Below, in pieces: positions 5,651 to 21,325 of a DNA stretch of 64,000 nucleotides. Each line of letters opens with the position of its first letter. Position 1 is the stretch's first letter. Below the pieces are notes generated by a model that had not been told where the DNA came from, made no database searches, and was given only the letters and a program-made list of their open reading frames with translations. The stretch is taken from positions 21,763 through 85,762 of the forward strand of contig CAJFRV010000007.1 of assembly GCA_904419495.1 (NCBI GenBank), read 5' to 3'. The translations under genes and the position numbers were made by a program. Source of the stretch: an uncultured Clostridia bacterium. GTDB taxonomy: Bacteria; Bacillota; Clostridia; TANB77; CAG-508.

Positions 5651-5800
5651 TTTACAGGATGAAACTGTAAATATTACAAAAATATTTCTAAAAAGTTACA
5701 AATAAGATACATTTCATAAAAAAGATTGAAAGTAATCTACAGGATGTGGTATATTAAAAATAAGAAAACTACAGGATGTAGCATAAGTTTTGTAGTTTTT
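5651..5800. promoter_or_regulatory. Divergent promoter region with three related palindromic operator-like sites (TTTACAGgatgaaaCTGTAAA; CTACAGGATGTGG; CTACAGGATGTAG nested in AAACTACA..TGTAGTTT)
   Basis: The ACAGGATG core occurs three times (5653, 5737, 5771), each within an inverted repeat. It lies between the XRE gene and the giant ORF. Confidence 0.45.
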
Positions 5801-5886
5801 AGAAAATAGAATAAGTGAGAATTAGGAGCTTGTGAGATGTTTTTTAAAAGTAAATATATAAAATCAAAAGAGGAGGTATTTATAAA

Positions 5887-8800
5887 ATGAAATTTTCAAA
5901 GGGGAGAATGTTATTAGCAAAAGATGGAACACATGGTATCACTTTAATTGCACTGGTTATTACCATTATTGTTTTGTTAATTTTAGCAGGTATTAGTATA
6001 GCAACTTTATCAGGAGATAATGGTGTACTTACAAAAGCGGTAGAAGCTAAAAAACAGACTAAAATAGCAGAAGATACAGAAAATCTACAACTTTTATATG
6101 TACAAAAAGCAGGAGAAACAAAATACGGGGATCCATCAATAGATGAATACTTAGACTATGTAGAAGAAAAAGGATATCCGACTAAAGTAGACAACGGAGT
6201 CAGTTATGTAGAAGCAGATGGAAGTATCTATGAAGTTAGTATTGAAGATGGAGAATTGAAAGTAGATTATGTAGAAGAAGGTACAATTACTGATCCAAGA
6301 ATACAAAGAATAGAAATTGTAGAAAAAACTATGAATAGTATTAAGATATCTGTTATAGCATCAAGATTAGATGGCGGAACTTTCTATTATTATATAGGAA
6401 CAAGCGAAGATCAATTAGAAGAACAAGGAAGCGGTAAAGAAACAGAGTTCACATTTGAAAATTTAAGTCCGGGACAAACATATTATATTAAAGTAAAAGG
6501 TGTTACTACAGATGGAAGAGAAACAGAAAAAAATATAACAGCACAGATAGATTCTATACCAGATGCGGAAGGAAATATAACTTATGACATAAGATGGAAT
6601 AATGGAACAGCAACTGTTACTTTTAGAAGTACAAGTGGTTATACAATTGAAACAAGTAGAGATGGTTTAACATATACAAAAAGTTCTGTTGTAAGTGGTG
6701 TAGAAAATGGAGGAATTGTACGAGCAAGATTAACAAATGGAAACTTTGCAGGAAAAGAAATTACTGTAACAGTAATAGACTCTGAAAAACCAAAATTAAC
6801 ACTAAAAACAGGAAAAGTAACAAGTAAATCAATAGAATTAATTGCAACGGCAACAGATAATGAAAGTGGTGTTACGGGACAGTCATATAATTATTATATA
6901 GGAAAAGGTGGAGAAAGTAGCACGTTATCTGGAAATAATACAACAGGAAAATATACTTTTGAAAACTTAGATCAAAATACAACCTATGAAATTAAGGTAG
7001 AAATAGAAGATAGAGCAGGAAATAAAGCAACACAAACAATGGAAGCAAAAACAGAATTAATACCATCAGCTTCAAGTGCAATTCGTAGGAATGTTGTATG
7101 GAATGCAGATGGAACTGCACAAGTAACATTATCAACAGATACAAGTTACAACATTTTATATAATATAGATGGCGGTCAATGGGAATTATATTCAAATGCA
7201 TTATCTGTGACGAATGGACAAACAATTTATATGTGCTTAACAGACGGAAGAAATAGAGGAGAAGAATATGGATTACAGGTAATAGATAGAGATGGTCCAG
7301 AAATCACAGTGACAAGAGGAAAAATTACAACAAATTCTATAACGGTAAATGTAGAGGCAGAGGATAAAGGATCAGGATTACCACAAGGAAATACATACAA
7401 ATATTATATTAAATCAAGCAATGAATCAGATTATAGGTTAATAAAAGAAGGTGAAAGTAATACAACATTCACATTTACAGGATTGACTGCTCAAACAACA
7501 TATAATATTAGAGTAACAACAACAGACTTAGTGGGAAATGAAGGAAAAGGAGAAATAGATGCTACTACAAATGAATTTACTTATGTAACTGGTAATATTG
7601 AATTTAGTGAAATTCGTTGGGAAAACAAATTAGCAAATGTTACACTAACAAACAATACAGCAAATGCAATGGAATATAAAATCATTCCAAAGGGAACAGA
7701 AGTAGACTTAGGGGGAACATGGCAAACAGCATCTAATAAAACACAAACAGTAGGAAATTTAAAAGCTGGAGATATCATTCTTGCAAGATTGAATGATGGG
7801 GTTAATACAACAGGTTATGCAACATTAACTATCCAAGACACGATAAATCCAAGTATAGAAGTAAAAATTAGTAATGAACAATGGACCAATACATCTGTTA
7901 CCATAACTATTAATGCAACAGATAACGAAAGTGGATTACAAGAACAAGCTTATAGTTTTGACGGTGGTACAAATTGGCAAGCAGAAAATACAAAAACATA
8001 TGAACAAAATACTGCCGGAATTGTTATAAAAGTAAGAGACGAAGCTGGAAATGTGACAACATATAATACAATCAACATTACAAATATAGATAAAGACGGT
8101 CCAACAATGAATGTAGAAACAGATACAACATCAAATTCATTAACAGTAAATATTACATCTGTAACAGATGCTGGAATAGGACTAGAAGATACACCAACTT
8201 TTGTATATTATATAGCGACAAGTAGTGAAGCATTAGAAACCACAATAGGAGCTACAAGTACAGAAAAAACAAAACAATATACAGATTTAACGCAAAATAC
8301 AACCTATTATTTAAAAGTAGAAGTACAAGATAAATTAGGAAATGTAACAACTGTGTATAAAACAGTATCAACAGGATCATTAGATGCAAGTTCAGGAGAT
8401 GTTAATATAACAGATCCAGAATGGACAAATGGAAAAGCAAGTGTTAGAATTACGAATCAATCAGAATATGATTTACAATATCAAATCGTAGAAAATGGTG
8501 AGAGTTTTAATGAAAACGGAAACTGGACAAATGAAACGAATAAAGAAATGAATATTGGAGAATTAAAACATGGAGATGTTATATATGTAAGATTAACAGA
8601 TGGAAGCAATGTTAGTGGAACAATTATTAAAGAAATAAAAGATGTAGTAAATCCAACAATCACATCTGTAACAGGAAATCGTGAAGAATGGACCAATACA
8701 CCAATTACTTTAACGATTAATGCAACAGATAATGAAAGTGGATTACAAGAACAAGCATATAGTTTTGATGGTGGAAAAACTTGGCAAAAGGAAAATACAA

Positions 8801-11800
8801 AAATATATGAACAAAATACTGCTGGAATTGTTATACAAGTAAGAGATATAGCAGGTAATATAACAACATATGACACGATCGACATTACAAAGATTGATAA
8901 AACAGGACCAAGTATAACCATTGAAGAACAAGAAACAACAACCAATCAAAGTACAATCAATGTAAAGGCTACAGATAGTGGCGTAGGTATGGAGGAAACT
9001 CCAACCTACACCTATTACACAAAACAAGGAGAAGCAGAAAACTATACCAAAATAGAGGAAAATCAGAATACAACATATACATTTAAAAACTTAAAAGCAG
9101 GAACAACATATACCATAAAAGTCGAAGCAAAAGATACATTAGGAAATATAGGTGAGAAAACACTAGAAATTACAACAAGAAATTTATTATATTCAGTTGG
9201 AGATATTACGTTTACAGATATTATATGGAACAACGGAAAGGCAACAGTAACTGCAAATAATAAAATAGAAGAATATGATATGCAATATCAAATTGGGAAA
9301 GATGGAGCAAACATTAATTTAAATGGAGTATGGACAACAGTAAAAGAAAAATCAATACCAATTACCAATTTAGAAGATGATGATATTATTTATGCAAGAC
9401 TAACTGATGGTGTGAATGTAACTAGTGGGTATGCAACCTGTAATATTAGTAATATATCAAAAGAAACATACACAGAGGAAGAATTAGCAAAAGAAACAAC
9501 AAGAGCAGATTATGAAATATTAGGCATATCTGTAAATAATAATGAAATACGTGTACAAATTGATGGAAAAGAAGAGAATGGAGCATTATATAATTATTAT
9601 TACAAAACAGTTAATGATGATAAATATACATTAATTAGTACAAATACAAATTATAATGAGCCAGCAGTCATAACAGATATACAAGAAGGAACATTATATA
9701 AAATTAAAGCAACCATTATTGATACAGATGGAAATGTATCAAGAAGTGCGAATACAGCAACTACAATAGCACTGGGACAAGCAACTCAAAATACAACCTA
9801 TAATGACAATAGAACTTACATTGATAATAGTAAAGAAGTAGAAAATGCAGAAGGAAGTAAAGTAGTAGCTGGATATACAGTTAGTGTACCAGCAGGATTT
9901 AAAGTTTCAGAAACAGAAGGACAAAATAAACAAGAGGATGGGGTTGTATTAAAAGATAACAACGGAAACGAATATGTATGGATACCTGTTTATGATGCCA
10001 TATATGATGGTGTAACCAGTATGCCAACAAGTACAGGTACAGCAACTAGAACATATAAACCTATGGCAACTAAACAAACAGGAAAAGCGGGATATTACGA
10101 AAGTTTAATTTACACTTTTAATGGAACATTATCATATAGAAATTCAAGTAATACAGGAATCGGAAAAACAAGTTACAGAGAACCAAGTTTGATAACAAAT
10201 AATGCAAATGATGGATATACTTGGGATGTAACACAAACAGTAGGTGTAAACTATGATGCAGCAGAAGATTATTATAAAACAGTCTTAGGATTTGAAAGCG
10301 CAAAAGCTTTTGGAGAATATATGGCAAGTAGCTATAATGATATGATTATGTCAGTTGATTCTTATGGAGGTTTTTATATAGGAAGATATGAAACAACAGC
10401 AGAAGAAACAGGAGACGGTGTTGTTGTTGGATCACAAGCCAATAAAACGGTATTAGCTAACAAAAATTGGTATCAAATGTTGTTATATCAAGATAGTGAA
10501 AAATATACGAAAAATCCATACAACACAATTGCAAGTGCAAGAACAAGTATGGTTTGGGGAAACCAATGGGATGCTATGTTAAATTATGTTTTAAAAGGAA
10601 TGGATAGTACAAAAGTAACTGGAAAAACCGGACAACAGAAAAATACACCAAGCAATTCTGGACAAGATGCATCAGATGTCATGAATAATATATATGATTT
10701 AGGATCAAATCTATATGAATGGACACAAGAAGCAAATGCAACTAACTATAGAATTTATAGAGGAGGAAGCTATGATACAGCATCTTCAGGAAGAGCATAT
10801 ACAAGAAATAATGTTGTACCAATAGACCAAGGACCAGCATTTGGAACAAGACTAGGTTTATATGTTAAGAGTACAAATGATGTAACAGGACCGGTTGTAA
10901 CAATTAACCATACAACAGCAACCTCAAATACGATTACAGTAGATGTAACAGCAACTGACAAGGAAACAGGTGTAAGTAGTTATCGATATTCTATTAGTGA
11001 AAATGGTATGAATTGGACACAAGTTGCAGAAACAACAACAAATACCTATACTTATACAGGCTTAAAACAAAATACAAATTATTATATAAGAATTATAGCC
11101 GTTGACGGACAAGAAAATGTTGGAGAAGCAGTAGAAACACAAGTAAAAACACAAACATTAGGAAACATTTCAGCAACAGCCATTACCTTATCACAAAAAT
11201 ATGGACCAGATGGACAAGGAATTGTACAATTGAACTTAGAAGATACCTACAAGAATTCAGGATATCATATAGAAACACAAGTTGTAAAACCGGGTGGAAA
11301 CTTCACAGAAGATCAAGGATGGACATCAGGAGATACGGTATATAATTTATCAAATGGAGATAAAATTTATGCAACTGTATATGATGGAAAGAATCGTTCA
11401 GGGGATTATTTCGAATTAGTAGTAGACGGTTTAGAAGAATATGCTTATATAGATGAAGAAGGAAATACCTATACAGAAGAGGAAGCACAAAAAGAAGAAA
11501 ATAAAAATCAAACTACTTACGATACAACTATGAATTATACAGATGAAGAAGGAAATACTGCAACCATTCCAGCAGGATTTAAAGTAGGAATATCTGATTC
11601 TGTAAAAAGTATTAACAATGGACTAGTTATTCAAGATAACAAAGGAAACGAATATGTTTGGGTACCAGTAGAAGAAGCTATTGAAACAGATACAACAACA
11701 GATTCAGCCCAAAAAGCAATGGCGAGATATCAAGCAGGATATAGTAGTGGTTCAGCAAAGGAATTTTTTGAAGGAATTTTATATAACTTTACAGGAACAG

Positions 11801-14337
11801 CATCAACCAAGAGAAGTAATAAAGCAGTTTTAGGAACAAATGTATATAGAGAACCAACTTTAATTTCAGGTGGTGCAGACTATACATGGAATATTGCAAA
11901 TAATAGTTCTAAGGGACAAGGATATGACTTATTAGAACAATATTATAAAAATATGGGATTTGGAACAACAAGTGGTGTTAGTGCATTTAATAGTTATACA
12001 GAATTTGGACAATATATGAATGAAGAATATAGTAATATGTTAAAAAGTGTAGACAAACATGGAGGGTTCTATGTTGGTAGATATGAAGTGAGTACAGAAG
12101 GAAATTTAGTTACAAAGGATGCAGTTATACAATCACAAATTGCTAAAAATCCAATAGCTAATCAAAACTGGTATAAAGAATATTATTATCAAGACAGTAA
12201 TCTAAATCCAAAAAATCCATATTATCAATCATCAAGTGTAACAACTTCTATGATATGGGGAAGTCAATGGGATGCTATGTTAAATTGGATGTTAGATGAT
12301 GATAAGACAAGAGAGTTTGTAACATCTATTACAGGAAATCATACAGAAACAGTTGCACAGACAGGTTCATATTCAACAGACTTATCAAAAAATATCTTCG
12401 ACTTGAGTTCAAATGTAGGTGAATGGACACAAGAAGGACAAGGAACAACATATAGAATGGCAAGAGGAGGTTATTGTGTATTAACAACGGATAAATACAT
12501 TTTCAATGCAAGTAGTAGATATAATACATGGCAACCACCAACAATGACATCAGTATATTCAAATCCAACTTCTATAGGAACAGATACAAGTAAAAACTAT
12601 TTAGGATCAAGAACAGCAATGTATATCAAAGATACGACAGATACAACAGCACCAGAAATTTCAATAAATAGTAAAACAGCAGGTACAAACAATATAGAAG
12701 TAAATGTAACAGCAGTAGATAAAGAATCGGGAATTAATAAATACATATATGCAATTAGCTTAAAGAATTTTGAGGATACAGGATTTAACGAAGAAACAGA
12801 TATTTTACAAAAAGTTGAAACACATGGAAATACATATATATTTAATGAACTAACACAAAATCAAAGTTATTATATAAGAATACAAGCAGTTAATGGTGTA
12901 GGCGGAATAGCAACTGCCTATACCGGGCTTATAAAAACAGAAGTCTTGAATGTACAAGAAGGAGCTATTATTCAAGAAAAAGTATATGGAAAAAATGGGC
13001 AAGGAACGGCATATTATGAGATTAGTGGTGAAACGAACTTTGAAAATGAAGGATATTATATAGAATATCAAATAGATAAAGGTGGAACAACAGGATATCA
13101 GCCAAGTGGTAGTTGGACAAAAGGAAATACAGTTAATGGTTTATCAGTTGGAGATGTTGTATATACTAGAATTTATGATGGTGTTAACGATTCTGGATAT
13201 TATATGACTACTAACATTACAGAATTGGAAACTTTTTCAGAGGTTTATAAAGAAACAAAAATATATGAAGATATAGAAACAAATCCAGTAGAAGGTGGAG
13301 AGTCAGAGACAGAAGTTGTCGGAAGAGCATATATTCCAGCAGGTTTTAAAGTATCAACATCAAGTCTAACAAATAAAATTGCAAACGGATTGGTTATAGA
13401 AGATGAGGCAGGAAATCAATATGTTTGGATACCAGTAGAAAATGCTATATATGATGGAAAAACGACAATTTCAGCTAATTATAAACCAATGGCAAGATAT
13501 CAGTCAGGATATAATGAAAGTACGGCAGAGCAGTATTTTGAAGCAATTTTATACACATTTAGTGGTACAAGTTCAAGCAATTATTCATTAACTGGTTATG
13601 GATTAGGAAAAAGTTCATTTAGAGAGCCAAGTTTAGTAACAAATAGTACAGCAAATTATTCATGGGTATTTACTGCTGGAAATAATTATGATGCTACAAA
13701 TTACAATCAGTTAAGTCCATTAGGAATTAATAGTGCGACAGCAATGGGAACATATTTAAATGATAAATATACAGAAATGGTAGAAAGCATTGCAAAATAT
13801 GGAGGATTTTATGTAGGAAGATATGAAACAAGTTCTTGGGAAACAGATAACTGGGAAGCAGGAGGAACTAACAAAGATAATACAGGAGAAATTATAAAAT
13901 CTGTGCCAAATGCAACAACAATGGCATCAACAAACTGGTATAAGATGTATTTAAAACAAGATAGTAATTATACTTCAAATCCATATCATACAAGCTCAAG
14001 TGTAACAAGTTCTATGATTTGGGGAGCACAATGGGATACCATGTTAAATTATATATTAACAGGTTCAGATAAAGAGAAGGTAACAGCAGTAACAGGAAAT
14101 CACTCGGGAACTAGGGCTAAGACAGGACAATATGGAAGTGACATAATGAATAATATTTTTGATTTAAGCTCTAATGTAAGAGAGTGGACAAGCGAGGCTT
14201 CTGGAGCAACCAACCGTGTCTTTCGTGGAGGCTATTACGATACGGATGATCTCTATGCTTCAAGCATTCGCTATTGCTACAATCCTACGAATAGCTTCTA
14301 CCATATCGGTTCGCGTCTCTCACTTTATTTAAAGTAG
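5887..14337 (+). CDS. Giant (2816 aa) surface protein and DGR target. It has a prepilin-like N-terminal anchor, >10 Ig/Fn3-like modules and three FGE-sulfatase/C-type-lectin-fold domains; the last one carries the VR.
   Basis: The 8451-nt ORF is uninterrupted. The N-terminus KDGTHG|ITLIALVITIIVLLILAGISIATL resembles a class III (prepilin) leader but has Ala at +5. Modules recur with the motifs YY[IY]..., TTY.I.V and ATDNESG. The three CLec-type domains carry GGFY[IV]GRYE ... WG.QWD.MLN ... EWT ... R[IVM].RGG[SY]Y motifs. The C-terminal 134 nt pair with the TR. Confidence 0.85.
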   Translation: MKFSKGRMLLAKDGTHGITLIALVITIIVLLILAGISIATLSGDNGVLTKAVEAKKQTKIAEDTENLQLLYVQKAGETKYGDPSIDEYLDYVEEKGYPTKVDNGVSYVEADGSIYEVSIEDGELKVDYVEEGTITDPRIQRIEIVEKTMNSIKISVIASRLDGGTFYYYIGTSEDQLEEQGSGKETEFTFENLSPGQTYYIKVKGVTTDGRETEKNITAQIDSIPDAEGNITYDIRWNNGTATVTFRSTSGYTIETSRDGLTYTKSSVVSGVENGGIVRARLTNGNFAGKEITVTVIDSEKPKLTLKTGKVTSKSIELIATATDNESGVTGQSYNYYIGKGGESSTLSGNNTTGKYTFENLDQNTTYEIKVEIEDRAGNKATQTMEAKTELIPSASSAIRRNVVWNADGTAQVTLSTDTSYNILYNIDGGQWELYSNALSVTNGQTIYMCLTDGRNRGEEYGLQVIDRDGPEITVTRGKITTNSITVNVEAEDKGSGLPQGNTYKYYIKSSNESDYRLIKEGESNTTFTFTGLTAQTTYNIRVTTTDLVGNEGKGEIDATTNEFTYVTGNIEFSEIRWENKLANVTLTNNTANAMEYKIIPKGTEVDLGGTWQTASNKTQTVGNLKAGDIILARLNDGVNTTGYATLTIQDTINPSIEVKISNEQWTNTSVTITINATDNESGLQEQAYSFDGGTNWQAENTKTYEQNTAGIVIKVRDEAGNVTTYNTINITNIDKDGPTMNVETDTTSNSLTVNITSVTDAGIGLEDTPTFVYYIATSSEALETTIGATSTEKTKQYTDLTQNTTYYLKVEVQDKLGNVTTVYKTVSTGSLDASSGDVNITDPEWTNGKASVRITNQSEYDLQYQIVENGESFNENGNWTNETNKEMNIGELKHGDVIYVRLTDGSNVSGTIIKEIKDVVNPTITSVTGNREEWTNTPITLTINATDNESGLQEQAYSFDGGKTWQKENTKIYEQNTAGIVIQVRDIAGNITTYDTIDITKIDKTGPSITIEEQETTTNQSTINVKATDSGVGMEETPTYTYYTKQGEAENYTKIEENQNTTYTFKNLKAGTTYTIKVEAKDTLGNIGEKTLEITTRNLLYSVGDITFTDIIWNNGKATVTANNKIEEYDMQYQIGKDGANINLNGVWTTVKEKSIPITNLEDDDIIYARLTDGVNVTSGYATCNISNISKETYTEEELAKETTRADYEILGISVNNNEIRVQIDGKEENGALYNYYYKTVNDDKYTLISTNTNYNEPAVITDIQEGTLYKIKATIIDTDGNVSRSANTATTIALGQATQNTTYNDNRTYIDNSKEVENAEGSKVVAGYTVSVPAGFKVSETEGQNKQEDGVVLKDNNGNEYVWIPVYDAIYDGVTSMPTSTGTATRTYKPMATKQTGKAGYYESLIYTFNGTLSYRNSSNTGIGKTSYREPSLITNNANDGYTWDVTQTVGVNYDAAEDYYKTVLGFESAKAFGEYMASSYNDMIMSVDSYGGFYIGRYETTAEETGDGVVVGSQANKTVLANKNWYQMLLYQDSEKYTKNPYNTIASARTSMVWGNQWDAMLNYVLKGMDSTKVTGKTGQQKNTPSNSGQDASDVMNNIYDLGSNLYEWTQEANATNYRIYRGGSYDTASSGRAYTRNNVVPIDQGPAFGTRLGLYVKSTNDVTGPVVTINHTTATSNTITVDVTATDKETGVSSYRYSISENGMNWTQVAETTTNTYTYTGLKQNTNYYIRIIAVDGQENVGEAVETQVKTQTLGNISATAITLSQKYGPDGQGIVQLNLEDTYKNSGYHIETQVVKPGGNFTEDQGWTSGDTVYNLSNGDKIYATVYDGKNRSGDYFELVVDGLEEYAYIDEEGNTYTEEEAQKEENKNQTTYDTTMNYTDEEGNTATIPAGFKVGISDSVKSINNGLVIQDNKGNEYVWVPVEEAIETDTTTDSAQKAMARYQAGYSSGSAKEFFEGILYNFTGTASTKRSNKAVLGTNVYREPTLISGGADYTWNIANNSSKGQGYDLLEQYYKNMGFGTTSGVSAFNSYTEFGQYMNEEYSNMLKSVDKHGGFYVGRYEVSTEGNLVTKDAVIQSQIAKNPIANQNWYKEYYYQDSNLNPKNPYYQSSSVTTSMIWGSQWDAMLNWMLDDDKTREFVTSITGNHTETVAQTGSYSTDLSKNIFDLSSNVGEWTQEGQGTTYRMARGGYCVLTTDKYIFNASSRYNTWQPPTMTSVYSNPTSIGTDTSKNYLGSRTAMYIKDTTDTTAPEISINSKTAGTNNIEVNVTAVDKESGINKYIYAISLKNFEDTGFNEETDILQKVETHGNTYIFNELTQNQSYYIRIQAVNGVGGIATAYTGLIKTEVLNVQEGAIIQEKVYGKNGQGTAYYEISGETNFENEGYYIEYQIDKGGTTGYQPSGSWTKGNTVNGLSVGDVVYTRIYDGVNDSGYYMTTNITELETFSEVYKETKIYEDIETNPVEGGESETEVVGRAYIPAGFKVSTSSLTNKIANGLVIEDEAGNQYVWIPVENAIYDGKTTISANYKPMARYQSGYNESTAEQYFEAILYTFSGTSSSNYSLTGYGLGKSSFREPSLVTNSTANYSWVFTAGNNYDATNYNQLSPLGINSATAMGTYLNDKYTEMVESIAKYGGFYVGRYETSSWETDNWEAGGTNKDNTGEIIKSVPNATTMASTNWYKMYLKQDSNYTSNPYHTSSSVTSSMIWGAQWDTMLNYILTGSDKEKVTAVTGNHSGTRAKTGQYGSDIMNNIFDLSSNVREWTSEASGATNRVFRGGYYDTDDLYASSIRYCYNPTNSFYHIGSRLSLYLK
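14191..14324 (+). repeat. DGR variable repeat (VR) at the 3' end of the target gene
   Basis: It aligns base-for-base with 16324..16454. There are 16 differences, and 15 of them are at positions where the TR has A. It is GC-rich (cgt/ggc/tcg codons) compared with the host background. Confidence 0.85.
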
Positions 14338-14344
14338 CACTGGA

Positions 14345-14358
14345 CACGAAAGCCGTGA
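14345..14358 (+). promoter_or_regulatory. Short GC-rich hairpin immediately 3' of the VR (cacg-aaagc-cgtg), a candidate DGR target-recognition hairpin
   Basis: GC-rich inverted repeat 8 nt after the stop codon in an AT-rich context. The analogy is to the hairpin downstream of the Bordetella phage mtd VR. Confidence 0.25.
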
Positions 14359-14511
14359 ACTTGAACATATAAATGAATTAGTGGACATAACAAATTTTGA
14401 TAAGTAGAAATTAAAATGCTTCCTTAGAGTTGCTATATAATCCTAAGGAGGCATGTCCTGATAAAAATAGAACAATTGCATTAGAAAATAGATAAATAAC
14501 CCTTTCCTAAA

Positions 14512-14850
14512 TTTTCGAAGCAATTGTTCATATATAGGAAATTCATTTCCCATATATGAAAAGTCGCTTGCGACTAACAGTTGTACACAATTTTACGTAA
14601 GTAAAATTGATACAGGAACAAATACGCGACATGTAAGTAATTAAAAAACAAAAAAATTTTAATCATGTCGCTATTGTTCTTGTATAGGAAAAATCGAGTT
14701 TTTCCTATACAAGAACGTTGCTTCGCTCTAACAATTGCACACAAATTTTACTAACGTAAAATTTGGCGCCGAACAATGACGCAGGCTTTGAAATGTTATA
14801 AATAGAAAATCTTTAAAAAAGCCCGCTATTGTTCTTAAATAGGAATAGGG
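14512..14850. repeat. Tandem ~150-nt repeat (2.2 copies) in the VR-avd spacer; each unit carries a TATAGGAAA-family hairpin and a second hairpin caa(a)tttta-N6-taaaa(t)ttg
   Basis: Units start at ~14512, ~14666 and ~14820. The first ~95 nt of units 1 and 2 are ~70% identical. The perfect palindrome cttgtataggaaaaatcgagtttttcctatacaag lies at 14679..14713. Confidence 0.6.
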
Positions 14851-14900
14851 ACAGAGACGAAAATAACAATTGAAATAAAAAAGAAAAACAAAGGAAAATT

Positions 14901-15269
14901 ATGAAACAAGATAATGAATTAAAGCTCATACCAGCTTATGAGCAGTATATGGAATATATGATACAATTACTTATAAAATTGCCCAGAACAGAGAAATTTA
15001 GTATAGGTACAGAATTTAAACAAGTGATGTATAGTACATTAGAAGATATTATGTTTATAACAAAGTTAGATATGAATAAAAGATTAAGTTATTTAAATCG
15101 AATAGATGCAAAATTAAATGCACAAAGAATCATGCTAAGAGTTATGAAAAAATTTGCATGGATAGACATAAAGAAATTTGATATTGCAATGGGAAAAATA
15201 TATGAAATTGGTAAAATATTAGGAGGGCTTATTAAATATTATGCCAAAAACAATCAGAAATCAATTTGA
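14901..15269 (+). CDS. avd: DGR accessory variability determinant (Avd-like four-helix-bundle protein)
   Basis: 122 aa, basic, predicted helical, immediately upstream of the RT and overlapping it by 29 nt. This is the typical DGR position for avd. The assignment rests on context and size rather than strong sequence similarity. Confidence 0.55.
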   Translation: MKQDNELKLIPAYEQYMEYMIQLLIKLPRTEKFSIGTEFKQVMYSTLEDIMFITKLDMNKRLSYLNRIDAKLNAQRIMLRVMKKFAWIDIKKFDIAMGKIYEIGKILGGLIKYYAKNNQKSI

Positions 15270-16287
15270 TAAATATTTGACTTATGAAAAATTGTTAGAA
15301 GCACACAACAAATCTAAAAAAGGAAAATGTCGAAAAACAGAATTAATTCGATTTAATTTAAAACAAGAAGAATATATTATGTATTTATATCATCAGTTGA
15401 AGAATGGAACTTATAAACATGGTGGCTATACAGAATTTTACGTAACAGAACCTAAGTTAAGAAAAATAGAAAAGTCCAGATATATTGATAGAATCGTTCA
15501 TAGATGGCTTGTAGATAATTTTTTATTAAAAGGGTTTGCTAGTCAATTCATCAATACTTCTTATGCTTGCATAAAAAACAAAGGTATGCATAGAGCAGCA
15601 TTTAAAGTACAAGAATATATGAGAAAGGCAAAGGTAAATTGGGGAGAAAATTATTATGTTTTAAAAACAGATATTGCAAAATATTTTAATAGCATTGATA
15701 AAGAAATTTTAATAAAAATCTTAAAGAGAAAGATAAAAGATGAAAAATTGCTATGGCTAATAAATGAAATATTGTATGCCCAGAAAAGGAAAAAAGGAAT
15801 TGAAATAGGAAATTATACAAGTCAAATATTTGCCAATATTTATTTAAATGAAGTCGATCAATATATTAAACATGAATTAAAAGTAAAATATTATGTTCGA
15901 TATTTAGATGACAGTATATTACTTTTAGAAACAAAAAAAGAGGCTAAAGAAGTTTTATTTAAAATACAGGTATTTTTAAAAGAAAAATTGGAATTGGAAC
16001 TGAATAAAAAAACACAAGTTTTTAAAGGAAAACAAGGAATTAATTTTTGTGGATATAAAATTAATGAATATAGACTAAAATTAAGGGATAAGGGAAAAAG
16101 AAAACTAAAAAATAAAATTAAGAAAATGAAAAGTTATGTAAAAAAAGGAAAAATAAGTAGTCATGAGGCCAAAAGATATTTAGCAGGTCATATAGGTTAT
16201 GTGAGATGGGCAAACGTATATAATTTAATGAATAAATTATTTTATATAGAAGATAATCAGTTTACAAATAAGAAAAGCATACATTAA
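15241..16287 (+). CDS. DGR-type reverse transcriptase
   Basis: RT motifs are present: KTDIAKYFNSID (motif 2), IGNYTSQIFANIYL (SQ motif 4, diagnostic of DGR RTs versus QG in group II introns), YVRYLDDSILL (catalytic YxDD). 348 aa, no maturase or endonuclease domain. Confidence 0.9.
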   Translation: MPKTIRNQFDKYLTYEKLLEAHNKSKKGKCRKTELIRFNLKQEEYIMYLYHQLKNGTYKHGGYTEFYVTEPKLRKIEKSRYIDRIVHRWLVDNFLLKGFASQFINTSYACIKNKGMHRAAFKVQEYMRKAKVNWGENYYVLKTDIAKYFNSIDKEILIKILKRKIKDEKLLWLINEILYAQKRKKGIEIGNYTSQIFANIYLNEVDQYIKHELKVKYYVRYLDDSILLLETKKEAKEVLFKIQVFLKEKLELELNKKTQVFKGKQGINFCGYKINEYRLKLRDKGKRKLKNKIKKMKSYVKKGKISSHEAKRYLAGHIGYVRWANVYNLMNKLFYIEDNQFTNKKSIH

Positions 16288-16323
16288 CAAAATTCAAGAT
16301 TTAGATATAGGGATAAATCGAAG

Positions 16324-16454
16324 AGGCTAATGGAGCTACCAACCGTGTCAATCGTGGAGGCAATTACAATACGGATGATCTCAATGCTTCAAGCAATCGC
16401 AATAGCAACAATCCTACGAATAGCAACAACAATATCGGTTCGCGTCTCTCACTC
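16324..16454 (+). repeat. DGR template repeat (TR), downstream of the RT
   Basis: Non-coding copy of the VR with AAT/AAC at every diversified codon (it would read GATNRVNRGGNYNTDDLNASSNRNSNNPTNSNNNIGSRLSL). It shares the GC-rich 3' block atcggttcgcgtctctcact with the VR, a candidate IMH*. Confidence 0.85.
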
Positions 16455-16686
16455 TAATACTATTTCAGATTATATATTTTACGGAATATATACAGTAAAG
16501 TATTAGTAATAAAGAGATTTATTCCTTCCTGATAATTTGTGATATCATTTGTTTTTATATATAAAATTTAGAAAACGTAAATGGTGTTATAAGTAAGATG
16601 GTAAAAAATGATAAGAACAATATATGTTAGTAAATATATCGAATTGAAAATATATCATTGTTCGTAAAAAAATAAAGGATTGTAAT

Positions 16687-16953
16687 ATGAATAAATGTTT
16701 TTTTATGGGAAGAATTATAACAGATGTAGATTTTAAGTTTATGTTAGATAATAAAAATGATTCCATATCCACATTTAATATAGAATTGTCAAATACATCT
16801 ATTATAAAAGCAATTACTTTTAATGAACGAGCTGATTATAGCTATCGCAAATTGGAAAAAGAAGATATTGTACTTATAGAGGGAAGATTGGATTCAATGT
16901 TGAATGTTATTGTACAGGAAGTAGAAAAGCTAGATGTGATAAAAAATAAATAA
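16687..16953 (+). CDS. Small OB-fold SSB-like protein (truncated single-stranded-DNA-binding-like)
   Basis: 88 aa. The MNKCFFMGRI..D.DF.....ISTFNIEL...IKAITFNERA....KLEKEDIVLIEGRL pattern parallels the SSB N-terminal OB fold (MNRVILVGRL....F.LAV..R....DFI.CV.W...AE....L.KGS.V.VEGRL). The similarity is weak. Confidence 0.3.
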   Translation: MNKCFFMGRIITDVDFKFMLDNKNDSISTFNIELSNTSIIKAITFNERADYSYRKLEKEDIVLIEGRLDSMLNVIVQEVEKLDVIKNK

Positions 16954-16972
16954 TGCAAAGGAGAAATGAAAA

Positions 16973-17488
16973 ATGGAAGAAAGAAATACCAAAAAGGTAA
17001 AACCAAAAAATACAAATAAGAAAAAAACGAGGTCTATGAATGTATGGATGCTTATATTATTAGTAGCGATTATAGTGGTAGTAATTGTCATTGTGATAAA
17101 CAATAAAAAATCTAAAAAAGAAAGTGCAAATACTGCAAATGGAGAAAATACATCTAATAGTTATGTTGAAGAAATTGAAGATGGTGTAAAGATTAATAAG
17201 AGTACAAGATTAAATGAAGCAAAAGAAATAGATGGTCTAACAGTTGCCAATATTCAATTAACAACAGAAAGTGGAATGACAACACTTTTAGCAGATGTTA
17301 CAAATAATTCAGGAGCAAGAACAGAAGTAAAATCAATAGAGATTACATTATTAAGTGAGGATGGAGCAGAATTAACAAAGGTAACAGGAATTATAAATGC
17401 ACTAGAAGCAGGAGAAACAACACAATTAAATATAGCAATGACTTCTGACTATGTAAATGCATATGATTTTAATATTAATATAAAATAA
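16973..17488 (+). CDS. Hypothetical membrane-anchored protein (Lys-rich N-terminus, one TM helix, Thr-rich beta-type extracellular domain)
   Basis: ORF with TM segment WMLILLVAIIVVVIVIVI; no recognisable catalytic motifs. Confidence 0.45.
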   Translation: MEERNTKKVKPKNTNKKKTRSMNVWMLILLVAIIVVVIVIVINNKKSKKESANTANGENTSNSYVEEIEDGVKINKSTRLNEAKEIDGLTVANIQLTTESGMTTLLADVTNNSGARTEVKSIEITLLSEDGAELTKVTGIINALEAGETTQLNIAMTSDYVNAYDFNINIK

Positions 17489-18105
17489 TTATTGTTTTGT
17501 TAATTTTAGCAGGAGTAACAATTGCAACATTAACAGGAGACAATGGGATATTAACAAGAGCAAATAATGCAAAAGAACAAACAGAAAATGCAGAGGAAAA
17601 GGAAAAAGTAAAATTATCATCAACAGCAGCACTAACAAAAGCAACTGGAGAAGAAATTAATCAAGAAGACTTAGAAGAAGAACTTGGAGAGTATTTTGAA
17701 ACAGGGAAATACGCAGTAGAAGAAGGAACAAATGAAGATGGAATAGAAGGATATGTAGTAACAATAACAGAAAAAGATCCAAATGGAAGAGAATATTTTG
17801 TAGACAAAAATGGAGCAATGTCAGAAACAGCAGATAAGGAGGATTCACGAACAATCACATTTTATATAAACGATATAAGTTTTGAATGCCTAGAGGGAGA
17901 AGTATGGGGAGACTGGATTACATCAAATGAAGAATTATTAAGTCAAAATGGATTTGCTGATTTAGCAACATTACCTATGTGGGGGAGCGTAATAGGAATT
18001 TATTGTGGTGGTGGTTTATTGGAACCATATCTTTCAAATGAAACAGGTAGTAATGTATTTGTAGACGAACAAATTCAACATTTGCATAAATATAGATGGG
18101 AGTAA
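17488..18105 (+). pseudogene. Promoterless 5'-truncated paralog of the DGR target gene. It starts exactly at the conserved TM-coding segment (IIVLLILAGVTIATLTGDNGILT) and has no ATG or leader.
   Basis: nt 17488..17513 are identical to 5975..6000 of the giant gene (attattgttttgttaattttagcagg). The frame opens only 4 codons upstream, after a stop. The downstream 200 aa are unrelated to the giant protein body. Confidence 0.5.
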
Positions 18106-18147
18106 TACATCTGTTATTTGGATATAATACTTCCATAAACATAATTG

Positions 18148-18420
18148 TGTTGTTAATTTTAGCAGGAGTAACAATTGCGACATTAACAGGAGAACTTAAG
18201 TAAAGCACAAGAGGCAAGTGAAAATACAAAGAAAATAAATGCATAAAAACAAGTAGAAATAGCAATAACAATAACAAGAAGCATAGGAACAAATGGAAAT
18301 ATAAATAATGCAGATTTAGAAAAAATTAAATCAAATAGAAAAAATAACAGGAACACCAAGTCCAATAGAAGATAGAGATTATACATTTATGGTAACAGTC
18401 AATGTAGTCATGTATTCTAT
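18148..18420 (+). pseudogene. Second truncated, decayed paralog fragment of the same N-terminal cassette
   Basis: attgtgttgttaattttagcaggagtaacaattgcgacattaacaggaga matches 17491..17540 (~50 nt). An in-frame stop follows 20 codons later, and frameshifted pilin-like remnants continue downstream. Confidence 0.45.
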
Positions 18421-18640
18421 TCGTCTTGTAATTTCTCTAGGATCTGATATCGAAATTATAACATGTAAAGGAGAAAACAACAGTACAAATATGCACCAAA
18501 TCAGTAAATAGGAGCTTGTCAAGTCTGGTGTGTAAAGAAAGTTTGATATTAAATAAAAAAATCCTCCCAAAAACTTGTAATTTTCAATATTATTGATATA
18601 ATAATAATTGGACATAAACAAGAGAAAGGGAGGATTTTTT

Positions 18641-19783
18641 ATGTTAAAGAAGGTAGCAATACTAGCAAATGGTGGAGATGTATCAGGATTTAATGCGGTA
18701 ATCAGAGCAATCAAGAAAACATGTGAAACAAATGGAATAGAATGCTATGGTTATATTGACGGATACAGAGGATTAGTAAAAAATAATTATGTTAGATTAG
18801 ATGGAAATGAATTAGCTTCAGGAATTTTGCCAAAAGGTGGTTCTATTATTGGATCATCAACAAATGCTATTGTGTTCCATTATAAAGTAGAACATGAAGA
18901 TGGAACAGTGACATATGAAGACTTATCAGACCAATGTGTAAAAAATGTAAAAGAAGCAGGATTTGATTGTGTATTTACATTAGGAGGAGACAGTACACAA
19001 AAATCAGCTAGAGACTTATACTTAAAAGGAATTAACACAATTGGTGTGCCAAAAACAATAGATAATGATGTTGCATGTACAGATATTACATTTGGATATA
19101 ATACAGCTGTTCATGTAGCGACTGAAGCTTTAGATAGATTACACACAACTGCAGAAACACATGATAGAATTATGGTATTAGAAGTAATGGGAAGGTTTGC
19201 AGGGTGGATAGCATTAGAATCTGCTATTTCTGGAGGAGCAGATGTGGCTTTAATACCAGAAATACCATACGATATTAATAAAGCAGCAGAAGCTATCAAT
19301 AAAAGAAAAGAAAATGGAAAAAGATTTAGTGTTGTGGTTGTTTCAGAAGGAGCACATCCAAAGGATGAAGAAGGAACAACACATTCAGCAGAAGGAATTG
19401 ACAATAAAGCAGGGATTAGTGTTAAATTCGGAGGAGAAGGCAATAGAGTTGCAAAAAAACTTCAAGAATTAACAGGATTAGAATCAAGATGTACAATTTT
19501 AGGATATATGCAAAGAGGAGGAACTCCAACAGCATATGATAGAGTATTATCTACAAAATATGGTGCAAAAGCAGTAGAACTTGCTATGGAAGGACAGTTT
19601 GGAGTATTAACAGTTATAAAGAACGGGAAATTAGATTGTGTACCATTAGAAGTTGTAGTCGGAGAAAACAAAGAAATAGGAGCTGTTCAAGGTGGTACAG
19701 CAGAAAGTAATGTTAGATACGTAACAATGGATGATGACTTAGTAAAAACAGCAAGAGATATAGGAATATGTTTAGGAGATTAG
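18641..19783 (+). CDS. pfk: 6-phosphofructokinase (PfkA family, long ~380 aa form)
   Basis: LGGDST (GGDGS-type) motif, PKTIDND motif, MGR motif (MGRFAGW), RBS AAGGGAGGA before the ATG at 18641. Confidence 0.85.
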   Translation: MLKKVAILANGGDVSGFNAVIRAIKKTCETNGIECYGYIDGYRGLVKNNYVRLDGNELASGILPKGGSIIGSSTNAIVFHYKVEHEDGTVTYEDLSDQCVKNVKEAGFDCVFTLGGDSTQKSARDLYLKGINTIGVPKTIDNDVACTDITFGYNTAVHVATEALDRLHTTAETHDRIMVLEVMGRFAGWIALESAISGGADVALIPEIPYDINKAAEAINKRKENGKRFSVVVVSEGAHPKDEEGTTHSAEGIDNKAGISVKFGGEGNRVAKKLQELTGLESRCTILGYMQRGGTPTAYDRVLSTKYGAKAVELAMEGQFGVLTVIKNGKLDCVPLEVVVGENKEIGAVQGGTAESNVRYVTMDDDLVKTARDIGICLGD

Positions 19784-19885
19784 TTTATTTTAAAAAGTAA
19801 AAAATCAAAAAAATAGTAAATAAGCTTATATACATAAGTTTATTACTATTTTTTTATAAAGATAATAATATTAGGGGAAAAAATA

Positions 19886-21205
19886 ATGAATATATTAATG
19901 TATTATATTAAATATTTAAAGGAAAGAAAACAAAAAATGAATTTTTTTCTTACAAATTCTTTTTATCACACAAATGGGCAATGGCCCCCTAAGAGTGATG
20001 AAGATTATAAGAATGATTTAATCAGAAAATTTATAAGTGAATTTAGAAAAAAAGTAAAAAGAAAACTAAAAGTTAGAATTTTCAGTTGTGTACCTGAATT
20101 ATCTATGGATGGAAGTTTTTTTTATTCTGATGAAAAAGGTGAATTTTTAACTTTTACAATTTATTTGGAAAATGTACCTCCAGAAAGAATTGGACTAAAA
20201 AAAGGAGTGTATATTGATAATAATCATGATATTGTAAAAATTTTTTATAAGACATTAAAAAGATATAGATTACCGGGAATTGATAAAAGTACAAGAATAA
20301 AATTTTTCATAACAAACTATCAAGATTGTTATGAAGGAAAAATATGTTTTAGTGTAGAAGAAGAGCTAAAAAAATCAGCAAGAACACATAAAGAGTTATC
20401 TGTAACAACAACAAATGATGGTTTTGTACTTGGATTGGAAGATGAAGTATATAATCAATATATAAATGATGAAAAGTATTTGAAAAAATATAGAAACATG
20501 ATCATAAAAAGAGTAAAAAAACTAGATACAGAAAATAGAATTGATTTAAATAAAATTGTAGTTTATATAGAACCATTATCTGTATGGCATGAAAAGGCAT
20601 GGAATCAAAGTCGATCAGGAATACTTTTAGAAAATGTAAAAAAAATCGAGCCTACAACAGATGAAAATGAAGGGAGAACCATGATAGACTATAATCCAGT
20701 AAATGAAAAAGGCTTTTACAAAAGCTATATGTTTTTATCAAAAGCAATGGTTATACTTTTAATTATAAGTCTAGTGATGGACAGTTTGGTAAAATTACTT
20801 TTCTTTGGATTACTATTACCAATTTATGTTATTATTTCTATAATATTCTTCTTTGGATATCTTAAATCATCAAAAATCTTTTCTATTGTTCTAGTAGCCT
20901 TATTACTATTATTTTCTATTAGCAATTATAAATATATATTAGATACAAAGATATTTTTTGAAGGAGGAGGCGTTACTGAGATAGGTACATGGGAAGAATT
21001 ATCAAATGATTCTTATGATTATATTATGATAAAAAGTAAACCAGTTCGAAATTATTATACAATAGGAAAAATAAATGATAAGGTATTTAAGATTAAAGAA
21101 AAACTAATTAGTGGAAAAAAATATAAAATAAGATATTTACCAAATACGAATATAATATTAGGAGTAACGCTCTTAAATGATCAAAATATGAACGATAATG
21201 AATGA
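19886..21205 (+). CDS. Hypothetical protein with a C-terminal cluster of TM helices (the start may be the internal ATG at 19937)
   Basis: ORF only; three hydrophobic helices (aa ~285-345); no conserved motifs recognised. Confidence 0.4.
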   Translation: MNILMYYIKYLKERKQKMNFFLTNSFYHTNGQWPPKSDEDYKNDLIRKFISEFRKKVKRKLKVRIFSCVPELSMDGSFFYSDEKGEFLTFTIYLENVPPERIGLKKGVYIDNNHDIVKIFYKTLKRYRLPGIDKSTRIKFFITNYQDCYEGKICFSVEEELKKSARTHKELSVTTTNDGFVLGLEDEVYNQYINDEKYLKKYRNMIIKRVKKLDTENRIDLNKIVVYIEPLSVWHEKAWNQSRSGILLENVKKIEPTTDENEGRTMIDYNPVNEKGFYKSYMFLSKAMVILLIISLVMDSLVKLLFFGLLLPIYVIISIIFFFGYLKSSKIFSIVLVALLLLFSISNYKYILDTKIFFEGGGVTEIGTWEELSNDSYDYIMIKSKPVRNYYTIGKINDKVFKIKEKLISGKKYKIRYLPNTNIILGVTLLNDQNMNDNE

Positions 21206-21325
21206 GTTTTATAGTTTTTATTTCTCAAATTTGACTAAAAGAGAAAAAGATGTTAACATAAATGTAAGAGGGAAGCAGCATATTTTAAAGTTTAATTAAA
21301 CATTAAAGATAAGGGGGCATTTTCT

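Follow-up and report, generated by a model that had tools for sequence, protein, structure and literature searches.

The DNA considered here, hereafter called the window, is a stretch of 64,000 nucleotides (nt) from an uncultured Clostridia bacterium (contig CAJFRV010000007.1), in which a diversity-generating retroelement (DGR) lies between housekeeping genes, namely fatty-acid synthesis genes on the left and phosphofructokinase (PFK) on the right, and is followed by two leaderless gene fragments that we call orphans 2 and 3. The DGR genes, repeats, blocks and orphans described are on the + strand. The constant part of the locus, or slot, is made of a ribosome-binding site (RBS) GAGGAGG (5870-5876), an ATG at 5887 and a 26-codon leader, MKFSKGRMLLAKDGTHGITLIALVIT (5870..5964 altogether), and its best promoter-like site, TTGAAA-18-TATATT with an extended TG, which was assigned by consensus match only, is found at 5726..5755. 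The leader opens the reading frame 5887..14337, which encodes a chimeric DGR target of 2816 amino acids (aa), in which the resident leader is joined to a giant body composed of FN3 repeats and three FGE-like repeats, and which carries the variable repeat (VR) at 14194-14327. Downstream come the DGR accessory protein Avd (14901..15269; Pfam bAvd, E = 1.8e-17), the reverse transcriptase (RT; 15241..16287; Pfam RVT_1, E = 1.4e-16) and the template repeat (TR; 16323..16456), which is 87% identical to the VR. With an RT, an Avd, a VR at the 3' end and 19 TR/VR mismatches falling at TR adenines, 5887-14337 is a real DGR target, as a first-pass annotation of this DNA, made from the letters alone, had recognised. 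Two small genes complete the unit. The first, p88 (16687..16953), encodes an 88-aa, weakly SSB/OB-like protein (sub-threshold SSB match) and is a conserved member of the unit, an open reading frame (ORF) of 80-100 aa being present at the equivalent position in loci L133-L153 and L136-L143. The second and last, p171 (16973..17488), was delineated as an ORF and by family alignment, and encodes a membrane protein of 171 aa that is of full length, since all its 217 homologues (133-187 aa) end in the same way, ...AYDF.V..K; a Pfam and NCBIfam search returned only a borderline FxLYD domain match.

Directly after the leader, the target gene carries a block of 26 nt, ATTATTGTTTTGTTAATTTTAGCAGG, which encodes IIVLLILAG in frame with ORF 5887-14337. 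A pattern search of the window retrieved this 26-mer at 5965-5990 (copy 1, exact), 17488-17513 (copy 2, exact) and 18141-18166 (copy 3, two mismatches), all in direct orientation, while none was expected in 100 shuffles and a six-frame search of the window gave no further copy. A weak tblastn match at 60957-61025 was set aside as due to chance: it falls within a 914-aa housekeeping ORF, which we take, by eye and without a family search, to be SecA. The first-pass annotation had correctly located copy 2 and correctly ascribed the block to the IIVLLILAG-coding part of the N-terminal region of the target, its positions for copies 1 (5975-6000) and 3 (18150-18172) being about 10 nt off. Copy 1 (5965..5990) was further delimited by alignment and by comparison with relatives, and represents the left copy of a duplicated junction sequence. 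Copies 2 and 3 have 50 of 53 nt in common (17488-17540 against 18141-18193), in keeping with the roughly 50 nt initially reported, and copies 1 and 2 show recognisable homology over 133 nt, at 72%. In the 30 nt on the 5' side of the block, identity drops to chance level (8/30 and 11/30), so that the 5' boundary is abrupt; the two downstream copies thus begin at the block with neither ATG, leader nor promoter, as had been noticed. The stop codon of p171 is itself a hybrid, made of TA and the first A of block copy 2 (17486-17488), with which it overlaps by 1 nt.

Leader and block, ...GITLIALVIT|IIVLLILAG..., define a family of thousands of members with unrelated C-terminal parts, whose hosts are uncultured low-GC gut Clostridia known from metagenome-assembled genomes, e.g. 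Clostridium sp. CAG:440 and UBA3678. The anchor was described as prepilin-like. At the end of the leader, ...THG|ITLIALVITIIVLLILAG, the expected Gly and hydrophobic helix are present, whereas position +5 is an Ala and not a Glu; the Pfam N_methyl model (PF07963) stays below its cutoff of 21.2 bits, with scores of 14.7-16.0 (E = 0.009-0.02), and the NCBIfam search (TIGR02532, prepilin N-terminus) gave no match. The label "prepilin" should be taken as a resemblance only.

Orphan 2 (17488..18105, of which 17488-17513 is block copy 2) is the leaderless but still open body of a resident gene of 231 codons. It is acidic, as first announced, with 205 open codons, a pI of 4.2 and 41 D+E against 14 K+R. 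Its top database matches are 231-aa proteins that correspond to orphan 2 plus a 26-residue leader and, compared with the intact proteins P0001 and P0373, it is 100% identical over 205 aa apart from one residue. Neither Pfam nor NCBIfam gave matches with this body 2. The structure model of the 231-aa protein (mean pLDDT of 60, reaching 80-89 for residues 60-140) predicts a long N-terminal helix followed by a small sheet, and a Foldseek search of the PDB with it gave no match below E = 0.1. No ATG or Shine-Dalgarno sequence precedes orphan 2, an in-frame stop lies at 17476-17478, and promoter-like matches in its vicinity are no commoner than in shuffled sequence. The sole candidate start is a TTG at 17497, devoid of an RBS; the independent start or promoter for 17488..18105 that the first-pass annotation proposed to look for was therefore searched and none was credible.

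One could still imagine that orphan 2 is a gene expressed on its own, with translation starting anew at TTG 17497 or ATT 17488, in coupling with the stop of p171, which is only 0-9 nt away. Its frame is intact over 205 codons and, no terminator having been found between RT, p171 and orphan 2, it is probably co-transcribed with them. Besides, a second stop-then-block junction is known at L090 (1302-2060), where an intact 233-aa family gene ends in a stop codon and a decayed orphan block begins right behind it, the spacer being 0 nt; this geometry, the same as that of p171 and orphan 2, hints at a regular process. However, no RBS is available, and the product would be deprived of the leader and of half the hydrophobic anchor that is invariant in 47 aligned family members. 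In addition, the intactness of orphan 2 is explained by its recency, as it is 99.9% identical to expressed alleles, and both the L090 orphan and orphan 3 are decayed. Independent expression is thus extremely unlikely, and the orphans are presumably untranslated. The general geometry put forward initially, one expressed locus followed by silent, leaderless partial genes in direct orientation, is the one that we find.

The comparison with related strains, which had been recommended, proved informative. Two loci, L154 (20.5 kb) and L155, match the window at 96-98% identity along 6 kb of left flank and 10.6 kb of right flank, and hence belong to the same species, yet they miss a segment of 11,523 nt (5991..17513, or equivalently 5965-17487) that contains the giant body, Avd, RT, TR, p88 and p171. 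They display the window-type promoter, RBS and leader and the identical 26-nt block, followed directly by body 2, and so carry an intact 231-aa gene where the window has the DGR unit. Body 2 differs by 7 nt between the window and L154 (2 synonymous and 5 non-synonymous differences). The same combination of window leader and window body 2 is found in protein P0373, with P0366, P0360 and P0362 as close variants, and the promoter region 5726..5755 is kept in L154, L155 and L003. An intact 231-aa gene also occurs in the same synteny (FabF-AccB-FabZ-86aa(-)-gene-orphan 3-PFK) in L001 and L002, whose flanks are only 85-91% identical to the window and which therefore represent another, outgroup species. 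By position, the promoter and leader of the window are the orthologues of those that the 231-aa gene has in L001/L002 and L154. Moreover, this leader is common to at least three different bodies: it precedes the 231-aa body in P0373, P0366, P0002 and P0360, as well as a third body, of 468 aa, in P0276/L139, where 113/113 nt are identical through the Thr codon and divergence begins at the block. Within this neighbourhood, a 439-aa ORF without Pfam match (19784-21222 in the window) is present in the window and L154 and absent from L001, and constitutes a second indel next to PFK.

The arrangement seen in the window is itself neither an assembly artefact nor rare, since the layout was read in 22 contigs from many samples and the succession p171-orphan 2-orphan 3 is invariant in the 8/8 window-type loci compared. 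Over 16900-19800, these eight loci show no mismatch in six cases, one in the seventh and 23, all in PFK, in the eighth. A scan of species-representative genomes with P0001 found nothing, meaning that the representative of the species is either absent from that genome set or does not carry the P0001 gene.

The giant DGR unit, for its part, has a life at other loci. Three other lineages keep the order giant target, (MutS_I), Avd, RT, small ORF (80-100 aa) and p172, next to rpsI/rplM, to a 110-aa ORF followed by Band_7/NfeD, or to a glycosyltransferase fragment followed by ParE. What comes after p172 in each of these lineages is a terminator or unrelated DNA, and never a block or an orphan. Giant orthologues carry leaders of their own, unrelated to that of the window (...KCKQTGITMVALVIT in L146 and MAKDNLKIDKINKKSKKGVTLVALVVT in P0241), L146 and P0241 being homologous to the window giant from just after the block on. 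P0241 is the one true orthologue fragment recovered when the N-terminal 450 aa of the giant served as query for homologues, a search swamped by the conserved leader. These orthologues with other leaders at other loci, together with the empty strains of the same species, indicate that the DGR unit was spliced into the 231-aa gene.

Several side observations were made on the unit. One of the lineages is polymorphic for the RT cassette: in L146-L148 and L153 the giant gene is followed by MutS_I-Avd-RT, and in L144, L145 and L149-L152 it leads directly to a 78-aa ORF and p172, without MutS_I-Avd-RT. The 135-aa MutS_I-domain ORF, which lies between the giant target and Avd in other species (L133, 5356-5763), has no counterpart at 14338-14900 in the window, where no ORF is found and only inverted repeats are present, including a perfect 18-nt hairpin at 14676-14716. 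Finally, in a subfamily of p171 homologues (P0169, P0374, P0161 and P0166), a pilin-like leader is joined at ...GVTIVALVVT|IIIGIIL...; the leader of P0169 resembles that of the giant orthologue P0241, and this protein gives the impression of a loss of the entire giant/DGR segment, from the T|II site up to the membrane helix proper to p171.

The first-pass annotation had offered the remnants of a tandem paralog duplication as one of its two explanations. In its most elaborate form, the giant unit and the 231-aa gene would have stood side by side behind separate promoters and leaders, the 5' end of the latter would have been lost, e.g. through an insertion sequence (IS) and an adjacent deletion, and the "empty" strains would derive from block-to-block deletion. 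Tandem family genes do occur, an IS in the second of them is seen in L199 and in L041, L052, L071, L080 and L092, and IS-adjacent deletions are seen in L004 and L086. Nevertheless, the bodies are not paralogous past the first ~45 codons, copy 2 is the displaced body of the gene that fills the slot in relatives, the promoter and leader correspond by position to those of the 231-aa gene in relatives, as described above, and the giant unit stands at other loci and behind other leaders in every other lineage sampled. More events would also be needed, and the 26/26 identity of the two blocks would be a coincidence. Tandem ancestry is accordingly very improbable, and the claim is not upheld.

The other explanation was programmed switching, i.e. 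frequent deletion between the direct 26-nt repeats that fuses the leader to orphan 2 and excises the DGR, as a kind of phase variation. The predicted fusion of promoter and leader to copy 2 does exist (L154, L155 and P0373, with L003 and P0366 as further instances), the repeats are direct and identical, and orphan 2 is still an intact ORF; besides, P0169, in which a p171-family protein is fused at the same T|II point to a giant-type leader, has the appearance of a similar deletion. However, the empty alleles differ by ~2% from the window over 16 kb of flank, and hence form separate, ancestral-looking lineages rather than recent derivatives, while the fusion alleles are also present in another species (L001/L002), and the simpler view is that they represent the pre-insertion state. 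Across the junction, no variation is seen among window-type contigs from many samples, the repeat is just 26 nt long, the 11.5-kb unit would be lost irreversibly, and orphan 3 is dead. In the part of the window scanned against Pfam, namely the segment 5887-21205 and ten further ORFs that turned out to be housekeeping (including PBP, FtsZ, FtsX and a histidine kinase), no integrase or recombinase was detected. Switching therefore appears quite unlikely: the fusion alleles exist, but probably as the state that preceded insertion rather than as products of switching. On the whole, the earlier interpretation is partly supported.

Where the leaderless edges come from is illuminated by other loci of the block family. 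Leaderless blocks make up ~10% of those sampled and all start at one same nucleotide, most of them being preceded by a conserved sequence that ends in ...GATAACATACTAAAC. A group II intron was considered for this sequence and dismissed, because the 5' end does not read GUGYG and the element codes for an integrase and an IS91 transposase. A metagenome scan with the adjoining transposase as query yielded 80 loci (L156-L235), in addition to L004 (8054-10085) and L086 (4821-6745). The element is 2.38-2.39 kb long and encodes a Phage_integrase protein and an IS91-type Y2 transposase with Zn_Tnp_IS91 and Y2_Tnp domains (E = 5e-30 and E = 3e-37, respectively, in L086), which places the transposase in the IS91 family. 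Its left end, GTACTAAATTGCTCG..CGCAATGG, contains a hairpin stem with compensatory variants between copies and adjoins a leader stub ...VIT-I in 19 copies and other DNA in ~20, whereas its right end adjoins a family block in every one of ~38 distinct copies, despite the synonymous-site variation of the blocks. At most a 3-nt ATH is repeated at insertions. In eight contexts, the IS is immediately preceded by another, intact family gene and no leader stub is left for the orphan; a ninth, L199, keeps the stub. Around 452-470 of L197, a right end-ATA-left end junction of the tandem or circle type is observed.

The position of insertion is T-I|I-V (...GTTATTACC|ATTATTGTTTTG...), and the orphan edge coincides with this insertion point to the nucleotide. 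Non-identical hairpin ends, a fixed target at the end downstream of tnpA, the lack of a proper target duplication, a variable left flank and the right-left junction all resemble what is expected of IS91/ISCR elements with their Y2 HUH transposase, IS91 zinc domain and subterminal hairpins, and the ends at these related loci may be classified accordingly. Members of the IS91 family have their target next to oriIS, produce no target duplication, and mobilise DNA lying beyond terIS in 1-14% of events (PMC13181058). The present element departs from known IS91/ISCR members in carrying a tyrosine recombinase gene and, where those recognise a tetranucleotide, in being restricted to one codon position of one protein family whose DNA varies synonymously. 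Its specificity would thus be codon-precise and directed at a protein-family motif, which is far more restricted than the tetranucleotide targets known in the IS91 family.

Other foreign DNA is met at the same point. In L059 (7831-8000) and L093 (1748-2839), leader-only stubs (...GITLIALVIT-I) are joined to another conserved element, which encodes a 183-aa protein without Pfam match and represents different DNA inserted at this position. In L049 and L099 (minus strand), orphan blocks are immediately preceded by a foreign end of a third conserved type (...ATAGTCATAACGGAATATTAGGACA).

The element can be tied to the window locus by three lines of evidence, although no copy lies in the window itself, where a BLAST search with the IS found nothing. 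First, L228 is the 231-aa gene of the window with the IS at this very position, 99.9% identical over 17488-18553. Second, L147 has the IS at the same position in a giant-gene orthologue. Third, a remnant of the right end of the IS, GATATAATACTTCCATAAACATA, precedes orphan 3 at 18121..18143. Its last 8 nt are the exact end of the element; such an 8-nt anchored match occurs at 6 of 63,960 window positions, and the local alignment has p ~0.02. In L169, ~115 nt of the IS end precede a block 98% identical to that of orphan 3, and this counterpart, together with the remnant, identifies the boundary of orphan 3 as an eroded IS junction. Orphan 3 (18141..18400, with block copy 3 at 18141-18166) is an older displaced body that is decayed, as had been stated: it runs for 20 codons to a stop at 18201-18203, followed by frameshifted remnants up to ~18330-18400. 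It is present in all empty-site relatives, and no protein joining the window leader to body 3 was found among the 376 proteins compared. Before orphan 2, no IS remnant could be detected, the alignment score being typical of random window segments.

With such an element at hand, one-ended transposition has to be considered for the DGR unit as well. An IS located to the right of p171 would have run past its left end through p171 and the giant gene up to the T-I|I-V position of the latter, the resulting [block-giant...p171-IS] would have entered the 231-aa gene at the same site, and the IS would then have been lost precisely. The behaviour of the IS91 family described above, the right (ori) end always at the block with a variable left flank, the eight contexts without stub, the L197 junction and the coincidence of orphan edge and insertion point are all in favour of this, as is the succession body 2-IS remnant-orphan 3. 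On the other hand, no IS or remnant is left between p171 and orphan 2, whereas erosion of the IS is irregular at other places (L086, L169, orphan 3). IS91 is not known to excise precisely. Furthermore, copy 1 would then have to be the block proper to the giant, and giant orthologues differ from the window block at 5-6/26 positions, yet the two window copies are identical. Altogether, one-ended transposition seems unlikely as the route by which the DGR unit arrived.

The identity of these two copies is indeed what calls for another explanation. Among 135 same-family blocks from other genomes, none is an exact match to the window block (0/135), identical pairs within the family amount to 0.2%, and the mean difference is 5.2 mismatches. 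On the strength of these alignments, the 26/26 identity of copies 1 and 2 is greater than expected from family membership alone, and fits a crossover within the block, in the manner of a duplicated attachment-site core, rather than a simple cut at a hot spot. That recombination does end within the block is seen at the window itself: a tract at 17497..18565 is 99.9% identical (1 mismatch) to the L001/L002 allele, in flanks that differ by 9-15%, and its left edge lies inside the block, following two L001-specific bases. One and the same body is consequently silent here while another species expresses it, and the exchange is a recent one. In the same line, L003 is a mosaic in which the window leader is followed by ~235 nt of another allele and then by window body 2. 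The tract of 1.07 kb comprises body 2 and orphan 3 and corresponds to L001 2049-3117. To the right of it, L014 has an identical DGR/orphan region but a PFK allele with 23 differences (against window 18635-19429), which marks a recurrent recombination boundary just upstream of PFK, at ~18566-18635.

Our preferred reading, which we hold to be probable, is that orphans 2 and 3 are left-over bodies, displaced when new DNA joined in frame at a hot spot, the anchor block. The indel polymorphism, the sharing of the leader, the other leaders and other loci of the orthologues, the IS at the exact site and the recombination tract ending in the block are observed; the direction of the event, namely insertion, and its route we infer. 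The slot, i.e. promoter, RBS and the 26-codon pilin-like leader ending in ...GITLIALVIT, would have been occupied by successive bodies, each newcomer joining in frame at the IIVLLILAG block and shifting the former body downstream, where it would remain without promoter, RBS, start codon and half its anchor. In a first step, an IS91-family insertion at the 5' edge of the block would have cut off body 3, after which a [block-body 2] unit took its place upstream of body 3 and the IS was worn down to ~23 nt. In a second step, restricted to one lineage of the species, the 11.5-kb DGR unit would have been inserted between leader and body 2, thereby taking over the promoter and leader of the 231-aa gene and orphaning its body. 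For this step we favour a route in which incoming DNA, opening with a near-identical block and closing directly behind the p171 stop, recombined with the resident gene inside the 26-nt block, either as a circle integrating by single crossover or by import from a strain in which the p171-stop/block junction was already present. Recombination within the block would leave the exact duplication of it, while the leaderless 5' edge of the cassettes would originally have been set by the site-specific IS91-family element. The orphans would then form a passive reservoir, from which reverse deletion, or recombination after transfer, could bring bodies back to expression; the 99.9%-identical expressed copy in another species suggests that this may happen.

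Several points weigh against this history. Its direction rests on parsimony, since the same alleles would result from a window-like ancestor in which block-to-block deletions occurred repeatedly. The examined parts of the window yielded no IS, recombinase or circular form, and the p171-stop/block junction, which shows no IS remnant, lies exactly both at the IS insertion point and at a stop codon. A simple cut at a hot spot would not predict identical blocks, and pure homologous recombination would not predict a leaderless edge; one-ended transposition with precise loss of the IS accounts for the edge and not for the identical blocks, while homologous recombination does the reverse. A stretch of 26 nt is also near the lower limit for RecA-type recombination. 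Besides, the 7 differences between body 2 copies are too small a number to reveal relaxed selection. L003 and L139, both short contigs from metagenomes, could be chimeric, but our reading is independent of them.

A more speculative version, which is conceivable but rather doubtful, would regard the anchor block as the attachment site of a dedicated system for in-frame cassette exchange. The Y2 transposase, possibly with the tyrosine recombinase, may cut family genes at T-I|I-V, and one-ended transposition or circle integration, with both limits at such positions, may move leaderless bodies between leaders, up to the size of an 8.4-kb target with its DGR. If true, such exchange would be integron-like but located inside ORFs, and would diversify the surface proteome of uncultured gut Clostridia.

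Coming back to displacement at the anchor block, it would mean that a complete DGR with an 8.4-kb target can move as a unit onto a foreign promoter and export signal by an in-frame join, and that such joins offer hypermutation systems a way to spread among surface-protein loci. It would also give a concrete and testable reason for the accumulation of leaderless gene fragments behind such loci. The hosts being abundant, uncultured low-GC Clostridia of the human gut, surface proteins swapped at the level of strains could be of importance for host interaction and for the tracking of strains. In this context, a conserved Tad-like pilus cluster has been described in gut Clostridia of the TANB77 group, and pilin-like proteins of this gut clade, which may not be the present block family, were linked to immunotherapy response (PMC11680825).

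How the locus relates to known systems can finally be considered. An integron was rejected: the ORFs scanned contain no integrase, the junctions lie inside coding sequence, and no attC-like inverted repeats are present at the cassette ends. Several other systems share part of the design. In Neisseria, pilS variation proceeds by gene conversion, for which the variable regions are homologous to one another and have homology on either side. The window likewise has one expressed pilin-like gene and promoterless copies without 5' coding region, but its bodies are unrelated past ~133 nt and share no 3' block, so that with homology at the 5' block alone only replacement or deletion is possible and the locus is not of the pilE/pilS kind. 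R64-type shufflons, in which Rci switches the C-terminal part of PilV, rely on inverted repeats, inversion and a recombinase encoded alongside. The joining of a constant pilin N-terminus to alternative C-terminal segments at short in-gene repeats is reminiscent of them; here, however, the repeats are direct, the change is irreversible and the scanned ORFs include no Rci-type recombinase, which sets the locus apart from shufflons. Elements such as e14 and phage 21 in icd, as well as tRNA-targeting islands, insert in a gene, supply a replacement 3' end and encode their own integrase. With them the window shares an identical core at both ends of the insert, a displaced resident 3' part and a left junction that is kept open, whereas those elements restore the same protein and the present unit makes a different one and has no integrase.

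Closest in logic, by analogy, are the orphan modules of the polymorphic toxin loci rhs and cdiA, which are explained by a "C-terminal displacement" model (PMC3150448, PMC7043789). In both cases, a constant 5' part with the promoter is combined with variable 3' bodies, new bodies arrive by horizontal transfer, older ones are displaced downstream as start-less orphans that keep a short conserved piece, and recombination can re-express them. In agreement with the definition of such orphans, orphans 2 and 3 begin with a conserved block of 26-53 nt and have neither start nor promoter. Still, the locus would not be a member of that class. Polymorphic toxin loci have an Rhs/YD or filamentous-haemagglutinin core and toxin C-terminal domains, each with a cognate immunity gene behind it, whereas the giant body here consists of FN3 and FGE-like repeats. 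No Pfam match was obtained for body 2 and no small immunity-like ORF follows the bodies, which here are surface- or adhesin-like and not toxins. The constant part is reduced to a 26-codon leader and a 9-codon block (35 codons) instead of a multi-kilobase delivery domain, the newest body brings a whole DGR with it, and all the orphans begin at one exact nucleotide, the insertion site of the IS. A whole DGR on a foreign leader and, at related loci, an IS91-family element that would be codon-precise in its specificity are the unusual features of this case among displacement systems of that type.

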